From: Minisyncoccota bacterium
GTDB taxonomy: Bacteria > Patescibacteriota > Minisyncoccia > Phycocordibacterales > XYD1-FULL-46-19
DNA: 53,788 nucleotides
NCBI GenBank assembly: GCA_041663165.1
Contig: JBAZRF010000006.1
Coordinates: 1-53,788 of the forward strand
Direction of reading: 5' to 3'
This document shows, piece by piece, positions 38,075-46,494 of this stretch. The notes under the pieces were generated by a model. That model ran no database searches, was not told where the DNA came from, and worked only from the letters and a program-made list of their open reading frames with translations. Both the position numbers and the translations under genes were made by a program. The number at the start of each line of letters is the position of its first letter. The stretch's first letter is position 1.

Positions 38075-40582
38075 ATGTCTATTTTGTCGAAAATATTAGG
38101 TGATACCAGTAGCCATTATGTTAAGAAAATCGCCCCGATCATTGTCCAAATAAATGACCAAGAGGCGGGGATTTCAGCCTTATCTGACGAAGCGCTCAAA
38201 GCCAAAACAGAAGAGTTTAAGGTCCGACTAGGTAACGGAGAAACTTTGGATGAGATTTTACCCGAGGCCTTTGCCGTGGTGCGCGAAACCGCTAAGCGCC
38301 TCTTGGGCCAACGCCACTTTGACGTTCAGCTCATTGGTGGTTTGACACTCCATCAGGGCAAAATTGCCGAAATGAAAACAGGCGAAGGAAAAACCCTTGT
38401 GGCCACTCTGCCTGTTTACCTAAACGCTCTAACTGGTAAAGGGGTGCATATTGTGACGGTCAACGATTATCTGGCCCGCCGTGACGCCGTCTGGATGGGA
38501 CAAATCTATGCTTGGCTGGGTTTATCGGTGGGAGTGTTAAATAACCAAGCTTCTTATTTATATGATCCTAACCATCAAGATCTAGATAAGGAGCGAGACA
38601 TTGAAGGTTCGTTTAAGGTGATTCATGAATTTTTGCGGCCCTGTTCTCGATCCGAGGCTTATTTGGCCGATATTCTTTATGGTACTAATAACGAGTATGG
38701 TTTTGATTATCTGCGCGATAATATTGCCTATCGACCGATCGACCAGGTTCAACGGCCCGACCCTCTCTCTCGTCACAACTTTGCGATTGTTGATGAGGTT
38801 GACTCGATTTTAATTGACGAATCGCGCACCCCGCTAATTATTTCAGCGCCAAGTGGCGAGTCCGAGAAATTATATGGCACTTTTGCTCAAATTGCTCGAA
38901 CTCTCACCAAGGAGATAGATTACACCGTTGATGAAAAGTTCAAATCAATTTCTTTGACTGATGAAGGCATAACCCGCGCCGAGAAGACGTTGGGCGTAGA
39001 AAACATTTATACCGATAAGGGGATCAAATATGTTCATCATCTAGAAACGGCGGTCAGAGCTAAGGCGTTATTTGAGCTCGATCGCGATTACGTTGTTCGT
39101 GAAGGCGAAATTGTCATTGTTGATGAGTTTACCGGCCGCCTTCAACCTGGGCGTCGCTGGTCTGAAGGCTTGCACCAGGCGATCGAAGCTAAGGAGGGAG
39201 TTAAGGTTCAAGAAGAGTCTCGAACTTTTGCCACTATTACCCTCCAAAATTATTTTCGACTTTATCAAAAATTAGCGGGCATGACCGGTACGGCTCAAAC
39301 TTCAGCCGAAGAATTTCTTAAGGTTTATGGACTCGAAGTTATCTCGGTTCCGACCAATAAGCCAAACCAAAGGGTTGATCTACCTGACTACATCTTTCAG
39401 AGTGAAAAAGGGAAAATTGCCTCAGTTGTTAAAAAAGTTAAGGAGATTAATCAAACTGGCCAGCCGGTTTTGATTGGCACTTCGTCAATTGAGAAAAACG
39501 AGTTGTTATCAGCCTATTTTAAAAAAGAGGGGATTGAACACAAAATTTTAAATGCTAAAAATCACGAAGAGGAAGGCAGCGTCATTGCTGGTGCTGGCCG
39601 AAAAGCCAGCGTGGTTATCGCCACCAATATGGCCGGTCGCGGCGTTGATATTAAATTGGGTGGCCCAACGCCAACAACCGAAGAACAAGATGAAGTAAGA
39701 AACTTGGGCGGGCTTTTTGTCTTGGGGACCGAACGTCATGATGCTCGCCGAATTGACGATCAGTTACGTGGACGGTCTGGTCGCCAAGGCGATCATGGAA
39801 CAACCCAGTTTTACGTGTCACTTGAAGATGATTTGATGAGAGTTTTTGGTTCAGAACGGGTAAAAGGAATGATGGGTCGTTTCGGTATTCCGGAAGATGA
39901 GCCAATCCAAAATAGTTTCGTGTCAAAAACGCTCGAGGGGGCGCAAGGAAAAATTGAGGGTTTCAATTTTGATATGCGTAAGCATTTACTTGAGTATGAT
40001 GACGTGGTGAGCCATCAACGGCAGACAATATATGACCGGCGTAATAAAATTCTTTTGGGCGGCAAGGAAGAAATCGATGAATTTATAACCAAGGCCCTGG
40101 AAGCCTTGCCCGTAACCCCTGAAGATAAAGATCAATTATTGCAAGGAGTAACCCAGAAGAGACAAGAATTGGGCGAAGAAAAATTTACCTCTCAAGCTCG
40201 TCAGACAATTCTTCAGGTCATTGACATGTATTGGGTAGAGCATCTTGAAGCCATTGATTACATGCGGGGGAGCGTGCGCTTGCGCGCCTATGGTCAACGC
40301 GACCCACTGGTAGAATTTAAGAAAGAGGGACTGTCTTTGTTTAAGGATATGGAATTGGCGATTTTTGGCAACGTCTTAGAGTTGCTGGCTAAAATTGAAG
40401 GCGAAATCAAAACTGAAGAAATTAAAATTAAGGAAGTTCATGATCAGGCCGAATTGATTCTTAACTCAAGCTCAGCCCAAGCGAGTTCAACTCCGGCCAA
40501 ATCAAATGAGCCCAAAGTTGGCCGTAATGATCCCTGTCCGTGCGGGAGTGGTTTGAAGTACAAAAAGTGCCATGGGAAATAA
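38075..40582 (+). CDS. secA: Preprotein translocase ATPase SecA
   Basis: The start was moved to ATG 38075 (MSILSKILG), downstream of the terminator. Contains the Walker A motif [10 protein letters not shown], the [10 protein letters not shown] box and the C-terminal zinc motif [14 protein letters not shown]. Confidence 0.93.
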
Positions 40583-41054
40583 GATTAAAGCTATTTTTTT
40601 TGATTGGGGGCGAACATTGCATGACCCGGAGACAGACACCCTGTTCCCGGGTGTCTTTGAATTGATAAGGGAACTCTCGAAGGACTATCTTCTGGTTTTG
40701 ATTTCGCTCGCGGTAACCGCCTCTTCAGAAAAGCGGCGGGAGAGTATTGAGGAGAGCGGAATCGCCAAATATTTTAAGTTGATTTTGGTAAACGAAGAGA
40801 ATAAGGACGAAATGTACGAACGAGCCCTAGCCGAACTCGGTGTCAAGCCAGAGGAGGTCGCGGTAGTGGACGACCAAGTTTGTCGGGGGATTAGGTGGGG
40901 CAATAGTCGGGGAGCAATGACCATTTGGCTAAAAAGGGGTAAATTTGCCGACGAGTTACCAACCAAAGAAACAGGTGATCCTGCCCAAGTAATTGGTGAT
41001 ATTAGGGAATTAAGTCCTATATTCATAAATAGGGCCTGTTTAAAGGACAGTTAA
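40572..41054 (+). CDS. HAD-superfamily hydrolase-like protein (short, 160 aa)
   Basis: Motif I-like is IFFDWGRTL. Motif III/IV-like is VAVVDDQ. Overlaps the secA stop by 11 nt. Confidence 0.6.
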
Positions 41055-41284: not shown

Positions 41285-43657
41285 ATGTTTTCTTCTCTCG
41301 CCAAATTAGGCAAACAACTCATCGTCCTCGCTCTTGTTGCGGGGGTTTTGATGATGCCAGTCTTGCCTTTGGTTGCAGAAGAGATAACCAATGCCCCCGA
41401 TGTTTCTTCCCCTGTTGTTTCAAGTGTCTCAGATACTCTCACTTCATTACCGGCAATTGAGGCTCCCGCTGAATCAGTCTCGTCAGTAATTACTCCCGAC
41501 CCGATTCCTGGTGCCGAGGCGATAATCATCGATGCGTCTACTACTCCAATCTCGACACCGACGATTGATTTGCCTGCCTCTAGCACTCCAGTAGTAAGTG
41601 AAGATACTATCGAGATTCAAACAACACCAACTCCCTCCCCGGTGGTAATAGACCCAGTTATGGCGGATGTAGCGGAAAACAGTTTTACCACCTTAAACGA
41701 TGGAGCTAACCCTCTTCCTATTTTGCCCGCAACCGATATCGTTGGTAGCGAAGAAAATGATTTTCAAACTCTAATAACGACGCCAACTGAGATACCAGAC
41801 AATTTAGCCATTAGTGACGAGAATCCTTTTGGCGAGATTATCAATACGGACAATCTAGCGATTAGCGATGAGGGGAACATAGAAACAACGAGTTCGGGAA
41901 CAGACAACCCGTGGGCTCTGAGCGACGAAAATTCATTCGTTACTCTCTCTGAGTCGGTCGACACGGTAGCACTTAGCAACGAACGGTCTTTTAATACGAT
42001 ATCCGTTCCCACTGATACCTTGGCGATTAGTAGCGAAAATTCTTTTGTTACTGAAGAGCCGATGATTAGTGCCCCAACGATTAGTGGTGAACACAGCTTT
42101 GTCACCGCCTCAACTCCGGTTGATACCCTAACGGTTAGCTCGGAGCGAAGTTTTAATACCTTAAGCGTCCCGATCGATGTTCTTGCTATTAGTGCCGAAC
42201 GAAGCTTTACAACTTTGACGGTACCGATCGACAATCTCGCTATCAGTGGTGAAAACAATTTTATAACGGCAACGGTTCCTATTGATACCTCAGCCATCAG
42301 TGCTGAGCACAATTTTACGACGCTTCCCGGTGGGCCAATTACTGAACCGGCAATCAGCGCTGAACACAGTTTTACAACGATGACTGTTGTCATTGATAAT
42401 CTCGCCATCAGCGGAGAAAACTCATTTACGACCAGGGCTGTTCCTGTTGATACTCTGGCAATTAGTCCTGAACAAAGCTTCACCACTGCAGCGATCGTTG
42501 TCGACAAACTTGCAATCAGCGGAGAAAACTCATTTACGACCAGCACGGTTCCTATCGATACCTTGGCGGTGAGCGAGGAAAATTCATTTACAACAAGGAA
42601 TTCTGAAATTGATACGCTCGCTGTAAGCGATGAAGTAGCCTTTAATACCCTTAACAACCCAATTGATAAATTAGCGGTTAGCGATGAGGGGTCATTTACC
42701 ACCACTGGAACACCAACAGACAATTTAGCCATTAGCGATGAAAATTCGTTTGTTACTTTGTCTGGTGGCGGCGGGGGTGGTGGCGGAGGCGGAAGCAGTC
42801 GCGTTCCTGTTGCCGGTATCGTTTTGGGCGAGCAAACTTATCGTTGCCCAATTTACTTAACGAAGTTTATTAAACTTGGCCAACCTAACAATCGTCGTGA
42901 AGTAATTAAGTTACAGGCTTTCTTAAAAGTTTTTGAAGGATTTAATAATCTTAAATTAACTGGTGTTTATGACCAGGCTACTTACCGAGCGGTCAAAATC
43001 TTTCAGACCCGTTACTTTAAAGATATTCTTGGCCCATGGCAACTCGGCCACGAGCCTACCGGTTATGTTTATATCACCACTCGCCAAGCGATCAACAATA
43101 TCTATTGTGGTCGGGATACCGAGGATAACTTACGTCTCCATAATCAATTAGCCTATGAGTACAATTTGGCGACGGGTGAAAATCTAGAAACACCGACCGG
43201 GGGAGCCGAAGGCGGTTACTTTATCGTCCCAACGACGACGCCGACGTCTACTCCAACCATAACGGTTTCGATTATAAGACCAAATATCTTTTTGGCCGGA
43301 GTTGGGGAGTTACTGGACTTTATTAGAGACAATTTCTGTTGGCTGTTGAATCTGCTTCTACTTCTTTTGATTTTCTTTTTGCTCTGGCTGCTTTGGTTAA
43401 CGGGTCGCGATGATGGTAATGATAATGATTCTCAAGCCAGTGACTTAGACACCCCTGTTCCTTTGCCTCCTGGTGCTATCCCGATTGAGGAAATCGTTGA
43501 TCAAGAGGATGAAGAAGAATTGGCTAAATTAGCCGAGGAGGACGAAGCTAAACTCGAAATACTCGATAATAACCCTTGGCAGGAGGCCATTGTGCTTGGG
43601 CCAGAGACTTCTTTTGCTGAAGAAGTTACTTTCCCGCCGGACGAAAAAGAATTTTAA
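41285..43657 (+). CDS. Membrane-anchored surface protein with ~20 tandem 18-aa repeats, a PG-binding-like domain and a C-terminal TM helix
   Basis: Signal peptide MFSSLAKLGKQLIVLALVAGVLMMPVLPLVAEE. Repeats of the type VPIDNLAISGENNFITAT. A Gly10 run. PG_binding_1-like LQAFLKVFEGFNNLKLTGVYDQATYRAVKIFQ. TM helix FCWLLNLLLLLLIFFLLWLLWL. Acidic tail. Confidence 0.85.
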   Translation: MFSSLAKLGKQLIVLALVAGVLMMPVLPLVAEEITNAPDVSSPVVSSVSDTLTSLPAIEAPAESVSSVITPDPIPGAEAIIIDASTTPISTPTIDLPASSTPVVSEDTIEIQTTPTPSPVVIDPVMADVAENSFTTLNDGANPLPILPATDIVGSEENDFQTLITTPTEIPDNLAISDENPFGEIINTDNLAISDEGNIETTSSGTDNPWALSDENSFVTLSESVDTVALSNERSFNTISVPTDTLAISSENSFVTEEPMISAPTISGEHSFVTASTPVDTLTVSSERSFNTLSVPIDVLAISAERSFTTLTVPIDNLAISGENNFITATVPIDTSAISAEHNFTTLPGGPITEPAISAEHSFTTMTVVIDNLAISGENSFTTRAVPVDTLAISPEQSFTTAAIVVDKLAISGENSFTTSTVPIDTLAVSEENSFTTRNSEIDTLAVSDEVAFNTLNNPIDKLAVSDEGSFTTTGTPTDNLAISDENSFVTLSGGGGGGGGGGSSRVPVAGIVLGEQTYRCPIYLTKFIKLGQPNNRREVIKLQAFLKVFEGFNNLKLTGVYDQATYRAVKIFQTRYFKDILGPWQLGHEPTGYVYITTRQAINNIYCGRDTEDNLRLHNQLAYEYNLATGENLETPTGGAEGGYFIVPTTTPTSTPTITVSIIRPNIFLAGVGELLDFIRDNFCWLLNLLLLLLIFFLLWLLWLTGRDDGNDNDSQASDLDTPVPLPPGAIPIEEIVDQEDEEELAKLAEEDEAKLEILDNNPWQEAIVLGPETSFAEEVTFPPDEKEF
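41790..42762 (+). repeat. In-frame 54-nt tandem repeat array (about 18-20 units)
   Basis: The motif LA[IV]S-x-E-x-SF-x-T recurs every 18 codons. The first and last units share GACAATTTAGCCATTAG. A 29-nt exact repeat occurs at 42407 and 42515. Confidence 0.9.
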
Positions 43658-43741: not shown

Positions 43742-43887
43742 GGGGGCGGAAAGATCACTGTCTGAACACTGGCTTGCCTTATAGCTTGCCGGTATGAGAT
43801 GGTTTTGAATAGATTAAGTTTAGTGTAGTTAGTGTCGACGAAGTCTCAAACATCCCTGCTTGAGTGCGGGGGAGAAAGAGGTGCTCC

Positions 43888-45711
43888 ATGAAGACGGGTT
43901 CTCGCGCGTTTGTGTTAGTAGTCTCGTTGTTGGCTGTGACTGTGCTGCTGGGAGGGTGCCCGTTACCGATATCGGTGAGCGGGACACTCTATGACGCCGC
44001 TGGCGGGATCGCTCGCGACGGCCAGGTCCAGAATGGTGACCGGATCGTAGCCCCGGGCGGTGGACGACTGACAGCTATCGGGGTAAAGCGGGACGACGTT
44101 CTCATCACTCCGATTGTCGACAGCGCCAAGGGCATAACGGCCCAAACCGGCTACATCGTAGCTGGGGTGGTATCGATCGCCGTCGTCACCGGGGCGACAG
44201 TCGCCATCGTTGACGGCTGTGAACCGCCGGAACCGGTGGTGATTGACATTCCGCCCCTGACCGACGACCTGTTGGTCAATGTTGGCGGAGTCGTCACCTT
44301 CACCCTGCTTCGTGGTTCTACTGGCGAAGGTGAGGGCGAAGGCGAGTGTGAGCTTGACGCGAAGATCGTTGCCAAAGTTGGCGACGAGACTCTCAAGTCC
44401 GGTGACGAAGTCGCCGAGGGTGAGAGCGTGAGCTTCTCGACGGTTGTCACCGGAGGTGGTGGAAACCTGACTTACCTCTGGGACTTCGGCGAGGGCGATC
44501 TTGATCACCGGCCGTCGTTCACCTCGTCTTTCAATGGCCCAGGCAACGTCGACGTGACCTTGATGGTATCGGACGGTGGTTGTCAAAATCTCGATAGCCT
44601 CTCCTTTGTCGTCGTGTCTGCGGGAGAAGGTGAAGGTGAGGGTGAAGGAGAAGGGGAAGGCGAAGGCGAGGGAGAGGGCGAGGGTGAAGGAGAGCTAATG
44701 GGCTCAATAACCGTCCACCTGCTCCCAAGCGCGGCAGTCAGTGCCGGCGCACGCTGGCAGGTTGATTACGGTCCCTTGCAGGCCAGTGGAGCGACGGTTT
44801 CCGATCTCGCACCAGGGGAGCACTATCTCGCCTTTGCGGAGGTGAGCGGTTTCGTTGCTCCTATACCGATGACGGCAACGATTGCTGCCGGTCAGACCCT
44901 GGTTCTGTCTGCGACATACAGTGTCGCTACTGTCGAGGTTCCCAATCTCGCCGGAAAGAATCAGGCAGAAGCCGGCGTGGCCTTGGCCAGGGTTGGTCTA
45001 GCGATTGGTGAGGTGACGACCGAGGCGAGTTCAACGGTTGATATAAACACCATCATCCGTTGGTCGCCACACGGCAAGGTCCCAATCGGTTCGTCGGTTA
45101 ACATTGTTATCTCGACTGGTCCGGGGACGTCGACGGTTCCCAACTTGATCGGGCTGTCTCAAGCAGACGCTGAGTCTGCGATCAACGACACCTGTCTCAC
45201 GTTGGGGACGATCACTACCGCAACCAGTGCAACGGTTCCAGCGGGCCACGTCATCAGTACGACGCCGCCAGCCGGGACAACTGCTCCTTGTGAGTCAGCG
45301 ATTTGTCTCGAGGTGTCGACGGGGCCAACGCCCCAACCGATGTCGGTCAAGATCACCGACCCGTTGCCCGGTCAGGTGTACTACGTCGGGGACAAAGTAC
45401 CCGTCAGCGTTCTGCCTGATGGGGATCCGTCTCTGGGTGCCTACCGGCTTCGTATAGGAGCGGCTGGCAAGAAGGACATGGAGAAGATCGCGAAGGGTTT
45501 GATTTCGATCAAGGACCTTCTCGACGCCAAGGTTCTGCCATCGGCAACGTTCGAGAACGTGGTAATGGGGCAACTATATACCACGAAATTCGAGCTCAAC
45601 TTGATGGGCGAGGCGTTCTTTCTTGCCTATCTGGAGTTGACACCCGACGACGGAGGGGAGTTGACGTACGTGACTGACCAGGTCCCGTACGTCGTCAACC
45701 CCAAGAAGTAA
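43888..45711 (+). CDS. G+C-rich lipoprotein with a PKD domain, two (Gly-Glu)n linkers and two PASTA domains (607 aa)
   Basis: GGAGAAAGAGG lies upstream of ATG 43888. Lipobox MKTGSRAFVLVVSLLAVTVLLGGC. PKD-like LTYLWDFGEGDLDHRPSFTSSFNGPGNVDVTLMVSDGG. PASTA-like VPNLAGKNQAEAGVALARVGL...NIVISTGP and VPNLIGLSQADAESAINDTCL...CLEVSTGP. Codons are GC3-rich. Confidence 0.85.
   Translation: MKTGSRAFVLVVSLLAVTVLLGGCPLPISVSGTLYDAAGGIARDGQVQNGDRIVAPGGGRLTAIGVKRDDVLITPIVDSAKGITAQTGYIVAGVVSIAVVTGATVAIVDGCEPPEPVVIDIPPLTDDLLVNVGGVVTFTLLRGSTGEGEGEGECELDAKIVAKVGDETLKSGDEVAEGESVSFSTVVTGGGGNLTYLWDFGEGDLDHRPSFTSSFNGPGNVDVTLMVSDGGCQNLDSLSFVVVSAGEGEGEGEGEGEGEGEGEGEGEGELMGSITVHLLPSAAVSAGARWQVDYGPLQASGATVSDLAPGEHYLAFAEVSGFVAPIPMTATIAAGQTLVLSATYSVATVEVPNLAGKNQAEAGVALARVGLAIGEVTTEASSTVDINTIIRWSPHGKVPIGSSVNIVISTGPGTSTVPNLIGLSQADAESAINDTCLTLGTITTATSATVPAGHVISTTPPAGTTAPCESAICLEVSTGPTPQPMSVKITDPLPGQVYYVGDKVPVSVLPDGDPSLGAYRLRIGAAGKKDMEKIAKGLISIKDLLDAKVLPSATFENVVMGQLYTTKFELNLMGEAFFLAYLELTPDDGGELTYVTDQVPYVVNPKK
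44623..44694 (+). repeat. (GGN-GAR)12 hexanucleotide repeat encoding (Gly-Glu)12
   Basis: Twelve consecutive Gly-Glu codon pairs were read directly. A shorter GEGEGEGECE tract lies at 44323-44352. Confidence 0.9.
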
Positions 45712-45732: not shown

Positions 45733-45772
45733 ATGGCCGAGGAGTGCTTGCACTCCTCGGCCATTGTTTTTT
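45733..45772 (+). terminator. Rho-independent terminator
   Basis: ATGGCCGAGGAGTGC pairs perfectly with GCACTCCTCGGCCAT, followed by TGTTTTTT. Confidence 0.85.
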
Positions 45773-45774
45773 GG

Positions 45775-45873: not shown

Positions 45874-46494
45874 ATGAGTAAATTTGCAAAGTTAATTAGC
45901 TTGATTGCGCTTGCTCTTTTGGTTATGGTAGCGGGTACTTCAGCGGTTTCGGCGGCTGGTCTCGCTGCAACCATCACTTCGCCAACTGCCGGGGCGACCT
46001 ACACTGTTGGTCAAACCGTCAATTTGTCAGCGACCAGTGCTGGTGCTGTCGGAGCAGTTAATTATATTTGGTCGTTCAGCGACGGCACTGCCAGTCGCAC
46101 TGGCCAAACTCAGACCGTTGCTTTTACTGCTGCTGGATCAAAGACTATTACCTTAATGGCCGGAGATGCCTCTGGTGCCAATAGCATTAAAACGGTTAAT
46201 GTCACAGTTAACGCCGGTTCTTCACAAAAGCCGGTCATTAGTAATATTGCTACCAGCAATATTACGCAGACCAGCGTGACAATTACCTGGACAACCGATA
46301 TCGTTTCGTCTAGTCGTGTGATCTATGACTCGACCAGCCACCCGGATATTTCCGGACAAGTGGCCCCGAACTTTGGTTATGTCGCCTCCACTCCGGAGAC
46401 CGACACGGTAACTAAGGTTACTAGTCATACTGTTACAATCTCTGGTTTGAGCCCGGGAACTAAATATTATTTCCGCGTTCTTTCTCAAGGCTAA
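45874..46494 (+). CDS. Secreted PKD plus fibronectin type III domain protein (206 aa)
   Basis: Signal peptide MSKFAKLISLIALALLVMVAGTSAVSA. PKD-like NYIWSFSDGTASRTGQTQTVAF...VNVTV. FN3-like ITQTSVTITWTTD...HTVTISGLSPGTKYYFRV. Codon usage is host-like. Confidence 0.85.
   Translation: MSKFAKLISLIALALLVMVAGTSAVSAAGLAATITSPTAGATYTVGQTVNLSATSAGAVGAVNYIWSFSDGTASRTGQTQTVAFTAAGSKTITLMAGDASGANSIKTVNVTVNAGSSQKPVISNIATSNITQTSVTITWTTDIVSSSRVIYDSTSHPDISGQVAPNFGYVASTPETDTVTKVTSHTVTISGLSPGTKYYFRVLSQG

Follow-up and report, generated by a model that had tools for sequence, protein, structure and literature searches.

What connects a long array of short repeats on the surface of a bacterium of the Candidate Phyla Radiation (CPR) with a neighbouring secreted protein whose last domain stops one strand short? 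The question is raised by a 53,788-nucleotide stretch of a Minisyncoccota genome (contig JBAZRF010000006.1, assembly GCA_041663165.1; referred to here, at its full length, as the window), in which an open reading frame (ORF) of 790 amino acids (aa), read directly at 41285..43657 on the plus strand, encodes a repeat-bearing protein, henceforth the scaffold. Two genes further on lies a secreted protein, henceforth the acceptor, that consists of a PKD domain and a fibronectin type III (fn3) domain. A first-pass annotation of the window, made from the sequence alone, had described the scaffold as a secreted and C-terminally anchored surface protein, a description borne out by its signal peptide, its peptidoglycan-binding (PG_binding_1-like) domain and its transmembrane (TM) helix, and had left the repeat without a family. 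The analysis presented here relates the repeat unit to the FG loop and G strand of the fn3 domain, the very segment that the acceptor lacks. Multivalent complementation in trans of the truncated fn3 domain by the repeat units, after gene fission and amplification of the strand left behind, is in our judgement the best explanation of the locus and a reasonably probable one on the sequence evidence.

The repeat unit and the fn3 G strand

About 18 to 20 in-frame units of 18 aa had been proposed for the scaffold, together with a consensus, and both hold: 20 cores are present and the column consensus agrees. The proposed end of the array (about 42762) is also right to within a nucleotide, but the array begins further upstream, at 41645 and not near 41790. 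Counting the motif S-x-E-x-x-[FI] gives 19 in-register occurrences, where 0.73 would be expected and 2000 shuffles yielded 5 at most; the 20th core is that of the first unit, AENSFTT at Glu131, and the series runs through Glu131, 157, 179, 196 and 215 to Glu486. Spacing is 18 aa, occasionally 17, 19 or 22, and VPIDTLAISGENSFTTLS gives an example of the array sequence. Ser9 and Glu11 of the unit are invariant, while Phe14 and Thr16 are found in 18 of the 19 tabulated units. The array is rich in Ser and Thr and acidic (57 Asp/Glu against 7 Lys/Arg).

At the DNA level the units have a mean identity of 50% (31–78%) and a longest exact word in common of 29 nucleotides; the invariant Ser9 is always encoded by an AGY codon, and Ala7, Leu6 and Thr16 employ every synonymous codon. 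Tandem Repeats Finder detected no 54-nucleotide DNA-level array in the scaffold gene, the units being too diverged. Together, this divergence and the lack of a detectable DNA array indicate that the repeats are old and have been maintained by selection on the protein. An assembly artefact is an unlikely source of the array. The exact copy number of 20 in this genome comes from one assembly, and long arrays are also present in independent assemblies (P0001, from three sources, L011 and L013).

Searches of Pfam, NCBIfam and PDB sequences with the whole scaffold returned no match on the repeat, the PDB-sequence matches obtained being caused by the Gly-Ser linkers of single-chain antibody (scFv) constructs. 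Nor did any fn3-type Pfam family match the 790-aa protein, even at E 10; it carries fragments of the fold only. A profile of the repeat made from 89 two-unit blocks then served to search 1.84 billion representative proteins, no word index being used. It matched 38 proteins, and each convincing match has the scaffold architecture. Four of the weak matches outside the family were examined (P0050, P0056, P0057 and P0058), and all are segments directly following an fn3 F strand, as in tyyyrvisndeal-NPAVSAEHSFTT, where the F strand leads into a unit-like segment. In relatives of the acceptor with a complete fn3 domain, the F strand is followed by IVSDENTFVTTG, by ISVSDEYTFKTAT and poly-Gly, or by ATSGDNTFTTS, and in the relatives P0157, P0119 and P0146 a unit-like segment also comes directly after it.

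The reverse comparison agrees. A position-specific scoring matrix (PSSM) built only from out-of-family G strands, taken from 29 complete fn3 domains, recognised 16 scaffold cores at 10–23.5 bits, against 0.06 matches expected. Across the loci collected, at least two matches occur only in proteins with the anchor domain (36 of 79), with a single exception, and none of 36 acceptors gave a match. Appending a native unit to the acceptor extended its match to the Pur_ac_phosph_N profile to position 93 of 93 for three of the four units used (46.0–48.7 bits). With reversed or shuffled units the match stopped at 82–87 of 93 (44.4–46.2 bits), so that the effect is weak but consistent. The unit is thus homologous to the fn3 G strand, and the repeat very probably represents a G strand that was detached and amplified. 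Of the earlier statement that the repeat could not be assigned, the part concerning Pfam, NCBIfam and PDB sequences stands; the repeat is, however, no orphan. A profile match to an already described family, which the first-pass annotation had named as one result that would overturn it, was nearly obtained, although the match concerns no more than a piece of such a family. An apparently orphan short repeat can be a piece of a common domain that is invisible to domain databases.

The exception to the PSSM distribution is a 163-aa ORF (L063, 9420-10714) with three G-strand-like cores, which abuts a repeat-less 267-aa anchor ORF; the two probably represent one scaffold gene broken by a frameshift or a sequencing error.

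The truncated acceptor and its unsplit relatives

The acceptor ends in KYYFRVLSQG followed by TAA, two residues past the F strand and without the FG loop and G strand. Its Pfam matches stop at 81/93 and 67/84 of the profiles (Pur_ac_phosph_N, PF16656, and fn3, PF00041). The AlphaFold model, computed with 71 sequences, has a predicted local distance difference test score (pLDDT) of 89, with fn3 strands A–F at 93–97 and no G strand; the strands of the second domain span residues 122–128, 134–152, 182–190 and 199–205, and the chain ends on the last of these. In Foldseek it matches tandem immunoglobulin (Ig)-like and fn3 structures with a probability of 1.0. The acceptor is hence an Ig-like fold that lacks one edge strand, the G strand.

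This truncation is conserved. Seven orthologues from the first genomic contexts end at the same point, and in a larger set, drawn from 80 loci of GTDB species genomes plus those earlier contexts, 36 non-redundant separate ORFs stop 0–2 aa (in one case 4 aa) after [YF][YF]FRV[LI]S. Their stop codons are TAA in 33 cases, TAG in two and TGA in one, and no G strand is encoded downstream of any of them in any frame; recoding or read-through of the stop was rejected on these grounds. When the protein database was searched with a profile of 14 orthologues (the 91-aa truncated fn3 domain as sole query gave 7 candidates), 79 of 95 domains of this fn3 subtype were found in proteins ending 0–2 aa after the F strand.

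The strand that would fit is encoded on another exported and co-located polypeptide: both scaffold and acceptor carry N-terminal signal peptides, and their genes travel together. Homology searches recovered 30 proteins with the scaffold architecture, all from metagenomes of Paceibacteria/Vogelbacteria-type CPR bacteria, and two further proteins that have only the C-terminal module in common with it. The gene order is (SecA) – scaffold – variable lipoprotein – PKD/fn3 protein (about 200–400 aa) – (MurB) – GatB – GAPDH, and it holds down to 34% identity, with SecA and MurB each absent from some distant loci. The scaffold gene lies in a conserved part of the core genome, usually flanked by SecA and MurB/GatB, and outside variable islands.

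The evaluation of co-occurrence was limited to non-redundant loci whose downstream sequence extends for 5 kb or more. A truncated fn3 gene lies 0.6–3.2 kb downstream in 29 of 30 repeat-bearing loci and in 3 of 24 repeat-less ones (Fisher p 8e-11, phylogeny being ignored). Of the three repeat-less exceptions, one is a protein whose five units are degenerate and the other two are ORFs truncated by contig ends, which brings the effective counts to 32/33 and 0/21. The lipoprotein encoded between the two genes was also considered as a strand donor and was ruled out, as neither it nor the middle protein of any other locus has a G-strand-like PSSM match.

Repeat-less anchor-domain proteins of other Paceibacteria carry the same fn3 subtype in cis, immediately before the hinge and anchor. 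Such fused domains are found in 7 of the 24 repeat-less loci and in none of the 30 repeat-bearing ones. Three of these proteins (L042, L083 and L056) have a single unit-like segment between the F strand and poly-Gly: L042 reads ...YYFRGIS-VDSLSTVVSSEINATTLS-VPPVNPPSGGGGGG...C-PYLL, and the corresponding segments, each followed by poly-Gly, are DASSTVVSTEVSALTLS in L083 and SPMVISGEFSNGT in L056. The PPVNPP-Gly hinge of L042 is that of the family members P0004 and P0008. These unsplit relatives, like the tandem fn3 arrays P0058, P0148 and P0157, share the fn3 subtype and the G strand S-x-E-x-SFTT with the system in the window, and the unsplit relatives have in addition the same Gly hinge and anchor module as the scaffold. 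In all of them, however, the G strand belongs to its own complete domain, whereas in the window it lies beyond a gene boundary and is multiplied 20-fold. The simplest history that these sequences suggest is that an ancestor of the form [..fn3–Gly hinge–anchor–TM] was split between strands F and G, and that the strand left on the anchor was subsequently amplified in tandem. Other candidates for the unsplit form were discarded: P0152, with two cores, is apparently a partial or chimeric ORF, and P0148 and P0161, in which PF01471 and fn3 are combined, are tandem fn3 proteins of the ordinary kind that carry their PG-binding domain at the N-terminus.

Proposed strand complementation in trans, its alternatives and its parallels

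According to the proposed assembly, scaffold and acceptor would both be exported by Sec, and each unit would then insert as the missing edge strand of one PKD-fn3 subunit, antiparallel to the F strand. Once inserted, the unit would complete the hydrophobic core with its invariant Phe14 and bring its invariant Glu11 alongside the invariant Arg201 of the F strand. If all units were occupied, up to 20 Ig-like subunits would be threaded non-covalently on one acidic string, and this string would be kept at the membrane and wall by the PG_binding_1-like domain, through predicted peptidoglycan binding, and by the TM helix. By geometric estimate, an 18-residue unit would be long enough for adjacent domains of about 35–40 Å to stand head to tail. 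The outcome would be a fibre or a bottle-brush coat, possibly with a role in adhesion. Whether the scaffold in this way acts as a template on which up to 20 secreted subunits fold and dock, and forms a conserved core envelope structure in a large group of Paceibacteria, is a broader proposition on which we regard the chances as evenly divided.

Several observations weigh against this account. The co-occurrence statistics ignore phylogeny, and all genomes come from one class, the Paceibacteria. One repeat-bearing locus, L008 (P0027), has no truncated fn3 domain within 6 kb downstream. The gain of the acceptor–unit chimeras over their controls is only about 1–3 bits in Pfam. AlphaFold folds the acceptor confidently without a G strand, although the model is silent on a need for complementation, and its drawing of the array, strand-turn-strand at a pLDDT reaching about 70, makes some self-structure possible. 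Larger acceptors were expected to go with longer unit spacing, and this expectation failed (rho −0.29, p 0.11), while unit number drops with growing acceptor size (rho −0.54, p 0.001); both correlations ignore phylogeny. The spacings of 9–15 aa in some genomes may also be too short for full occupancy.

In L008, a 502-aa protein resembling PAF-AH/PETase enzymes follows the middle gene, in the place of the acceptor, whose counterpart may be encoded elsewhere in that genome.

The first-pass annotation had suggested that each unit may form one coil of a beta-solenoid within a rigid wall fibre; a self-folding array might also be a hairpin stack, with one strand-turn-strand rung per unit. The fn3 neighbour would then be unrelated or bind only at one end of the fibre. 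The regular 18-aa period in the window genome and its close relatives agrees with such a fold. So do the two short strands per unit that AlphaFold places at aa ~300–478 with pLDDT 50–70 (full-length run, 27 homologues) and the identity of the weak Foldseek matches, which are beta-helices and CsgA. Yet pLDDT over the array as a whole is only about 30–70, confident modelling being confined to the C-terminal helical domain and the TM helix, and Foldseek found no PDB match to the scaffold model at E 0.001, the best having E 0.19. Across the family, conservation is limited to the core of about 10 aa, [AV][IV]S-x-E-x-SF-x-T, and the low-complexity linkers between cores turn Gly/Asp/Asn/Pro-rich or hold GGCTSxCG inserts, with spacing from 9 to more than 40 aa. 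This pattern points to a short strand-like motif on a flexible string and to no family-wide solenoid. Neither a constant coil length with constant inward positions nor a confident model or structural match is thus found. The correspondence of the unit to a single fn3 edge strand and loop also argues against a solenoid, which would leave the conserved truncation of the neighbouring fn3 domain unexplained. We consider a self-folding array unlikely.

Alternatively, the units could donate strands mainly to another acceptor, for instance to edge strands of Ig- or fn3-like proteins of a host cell, in the manner of a tandem beta-zipper adhesin, with the neighbouring fn3 protein taking at most one unit. 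G-strand-like units on an exposed and probably flexible string would suit this role, as would the conserved variants at units 3 and 4. An episymbiotic way of life is moreover assumed for Paceibacteria, and in host-attached cultured members secreted proteins that carry PG-binding domains, which we liken to the scaffold by description only, are highly expressed (PMC10936435). The near-perfect co-occurrence with a dedicated acceptor that lacks exactly this strand nevertheless argues against it, as do the core-genome position, which is no variable host-specific island, and the fact that no host partner is known, so that this too appears improbable.

Least probable of all is that the array is an acidic flexible spacer or modified stalk (for Ca2+ binding or O-glycosylation) in which the G-strand motif is a relic and beside which the truncated fn3 domain is stable alone: the acidic, Ser/Thr-rich composition, the low pLDDT of the array and the confident acceptor model agree with a spacer, but the core residues Ser9, Glu11, Phe14 and Thr16 are under strong purifying selection, with varied synonymous codons, across units and lineages while the remainder of the unit drifts, a relic would decay, and a spacer would have nothing to present on its N-terminal side.

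Complementation of the truncated acceptor by the scaffold units has partial parallels in known systems. An Ig-like fold without its G strand, completed by a strand of another chain, is the basis of chaperone-usher pili (PMC3960871, PMC4654587). There, as in the acceptor, the C-terminal G strand of a beta-sandwich is missing and supplied by a different polypeptide. Each pilus subunit, however, both accepts a strand and donates one through its N-terminal extension, giving a homopolymer, whereas here all donor strands would stand in tandem on one anchored chain and the acceptor itself carries none. Chaperone-usher pili also need a periplasmic chaperone and an outer-membrane usher, and no chaperone or usher genes were present in the eight neighbourhoods examined. 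The bacterium, as a member of the CPR, is not known to have an outer membrane.

Strand donation without a chaperone is found in filaments such as TasA/TapA of Bacillus subtilis, archaeal threads, bundling pili and cannulae (PMC9674648, PMC10151520, PMC9715654, PMC9245690, PMC11722229). These resemble the proposed assembly in extracellular strand donation without an usher, and TapA, like the scaffold, is an anchoring donor to a fibre subunit. They are, in contrast, head-to-tail homopolymers, TapA gives one strand as compared with the 20 units of the scaffold, and in none of them does the origin lie in a gene fission within an fn3 domain.

The tandem beta-zipper of the fibronectin-binding proteins FnBPA and SfbI (PMC7480013, PMC5031765) is similar in that a wall-anchored protein bears tandem, largely disordered short repeats, each of which adds an edge strand to one beta-sandwich module. 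The zipper targets complete F1 modules on one host chain, while the partner proposed here is the bacterium's own secreted protein, whose fold is incomplete by precisely that strand. The zipper adhesins are attached by an LPXTG sortase anchor, the scaffold by a TM helix and a PG_binding_1-like domain, with an 85-aa acidic tail at its C-terminus. In the engineered SpyTag/SpyCatcher pair, a split Ig-like domain is reconstituted by its C-terminal beta-strand peptide and locked by an isopeptide bond. That pair is man-made and covalent, whereas the scaffold system is natural and tandemly multivalent and has no sequence sign of a covalent lock.

A literature search returned no description of the scaffold family or of tandem-donor scaffolds. 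The combination of one many-donor scaffold, an acceptor without a donor strand, the lack of chaperone and usher, and descent from a domain broken by gene fission was likewise not found described. If the proposal is correct, the locus would represent a new strand-donation architecture, with many donors on one scaffold and an acceptor that donates no strand, and a clear example from nature of gene fission within a domain after which the two halves have stayed functionally coupled. It would also provide a natural, genetically encoded, non-covalent peptide-tag/catcher pair of tunable valency. For the Paceibacteria, a large uncultured lineage with a surface biology that is almost unknown, it offers a testable model of a conserved envelope structure. 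Secreted PG-binding proteins and a PKD/Ig-like protein, which can be likened to the trio of genes described here by description only, were reported by Kuroda et al. among the most expressed genes of unknown function in cultured Paceibacteria (PMC10936435).

Other features of the scaffold and its surroundings

The coordinates of the features are collected in Table 1.

Table 1. Features of the scaffold, the middle gene and the acceptor in the window.
Feature	Residues (aa)	Position	Strand	Basis
Scaffold signal peptide, MFSSLAKLGKQLIVLALVAGVLMMPVLPLVA	1-31	41285..41377	+	Hydrophobic N-terminus; cleavage site inferred
Variable acidic Ser/Thr/Pro/Val-rich spacer	32-120	41378..41644	+	13 Asp/Glu, no Lys/Arg
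Array, 20 units of ~18 aa, core A[IV]S-x-E-x-SF-x-T	~121-493	41645..42763	+	Periodicity, consensus, G-strand PSSM
Gly10 hinge	494-503	42764..42793	+	Direct reading
Basic PG_binding_1-like helical domain	516-624	42830..43156	+	Pfam, AlphaFold, Foldseek
Single TM helix	684-705	43334..43399	+	Top hydropathy window; conserved
Acidic tail, motif LAEEDE...NNPWQE, then stop	706-790	43400..43657	+	27 Asp/Glu against 4 Lys/Arg
Middle gene, putative lipoprotein (LLGGC lipobox), one PKD and two PASTA domains		43864..45711	+	Pfam
Terminator-like hairpin with T tail; 14-bp stem containing 9 G-C pairs		45733..45774	+	Consensus scan, pattern match only
Acceptor, secreted, 206 aa: signal peptide, PKD, fn3 (Pur_ac_phosph_N-type)		45874..46494	+	Pfam

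In the scaffold, the signal peptide is modelled as a helix (aa 2–22) by AlphaFold and is kept in homologues, whereas the spacer behind it aligns poorly across the family and has a pLDDT below 50. Upstream of the anchor, Pfam and NCBIfam searches indicated no other candidate functional domain.

Units 3 and 4 of the array (Glu179 and Glu196; 41789-41893) are variants of an AIS-x-E..G type, DNLAISDENPFGE and DNLAISDEGNIET, without the F-x-T ending. They occupy the same position in orthologues, similar AIS-x-EF-G units begin the arrays of distant members, and the cis G strand of L056 (VISGEFSNGT) is of the same type. They may form a cap or a site for a different partner. An antisense ORF of 322 aa (41764-42732, minus strand) crosses the array; rather than a gene, it is probably a side effect of the periodic codon pattern.

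The run of ten Gly residues had been placed exactly, and a Gly-rich hinge is kept at this position both in the family and in the cis-fused relatives. The further prediction of a PG_binding_1-like module, one TM helix and an acidic tail was likewise confirmed. The PF01471 match (aa 538–577) scores 23.2 bits against a gathering cut-off of 23, which makes membership of the C-terminal domain in PG_binding_1 marginal by sequence, and PF01471 is precomputed for six homologues. The domain is helical in the AlphaFold model (pLDDT 83–93), has a pI of 9.5, contains two Cys residues (Cys521 and Cys608) that are invariant in the family alignment, and resembles the PG-binding domain of SleC weakly in Foldseek (probability 0.87, but E 0.85). 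AlphaFold helices at aa 668–682 and 684–709 cover or adjoin the TM segment. No LPXTG motif was read in the C-terminus of the scaffold. In the tail (43400-43654), the motif EDEEELAKLAEEDEAKLE..LDNNPWQE is preserved in close homologues; from the topology the tail would be cytoplasmic, and it may act as a docking site there.

The PG_binding_1-like domain with its two invariant Cys residues, together with the TM helix, is a widespread C-terminal anchor module. Relatives of it are encoded by 259 stretches in GTDB species genomes, where it terminates very different Paceibacteria surface proteins of up to about 1700 aa, some with vWA/DUF11 domains (P0031, P0032).

Between secA and the scaffold lies a 160-aa ORF for a HAD-like hydrolase (40572-41054), which overlaps the end of secA by 11 nucleotides and is absent from this position in the closest relative (L001/L002). 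The middle gene was found between scaffold and acceptor in every context examined, its product carrying PASTA, PKD or TSP3 domains. In the window it has a G+C content (GC) of 0.59, a third-position value (GC3) of 0.66 and (GE)n runs, while the GC3 of its neighbours is 0.41–0.48. It is GC3-rich in relatives too (0.60 in L001 and 0.73 in L004), and the bias is a persistent property of this gene and no sign of recent transfer. Given the hairpin that precedes it, the acceptor may be transcribed separately, possibly at a different level.

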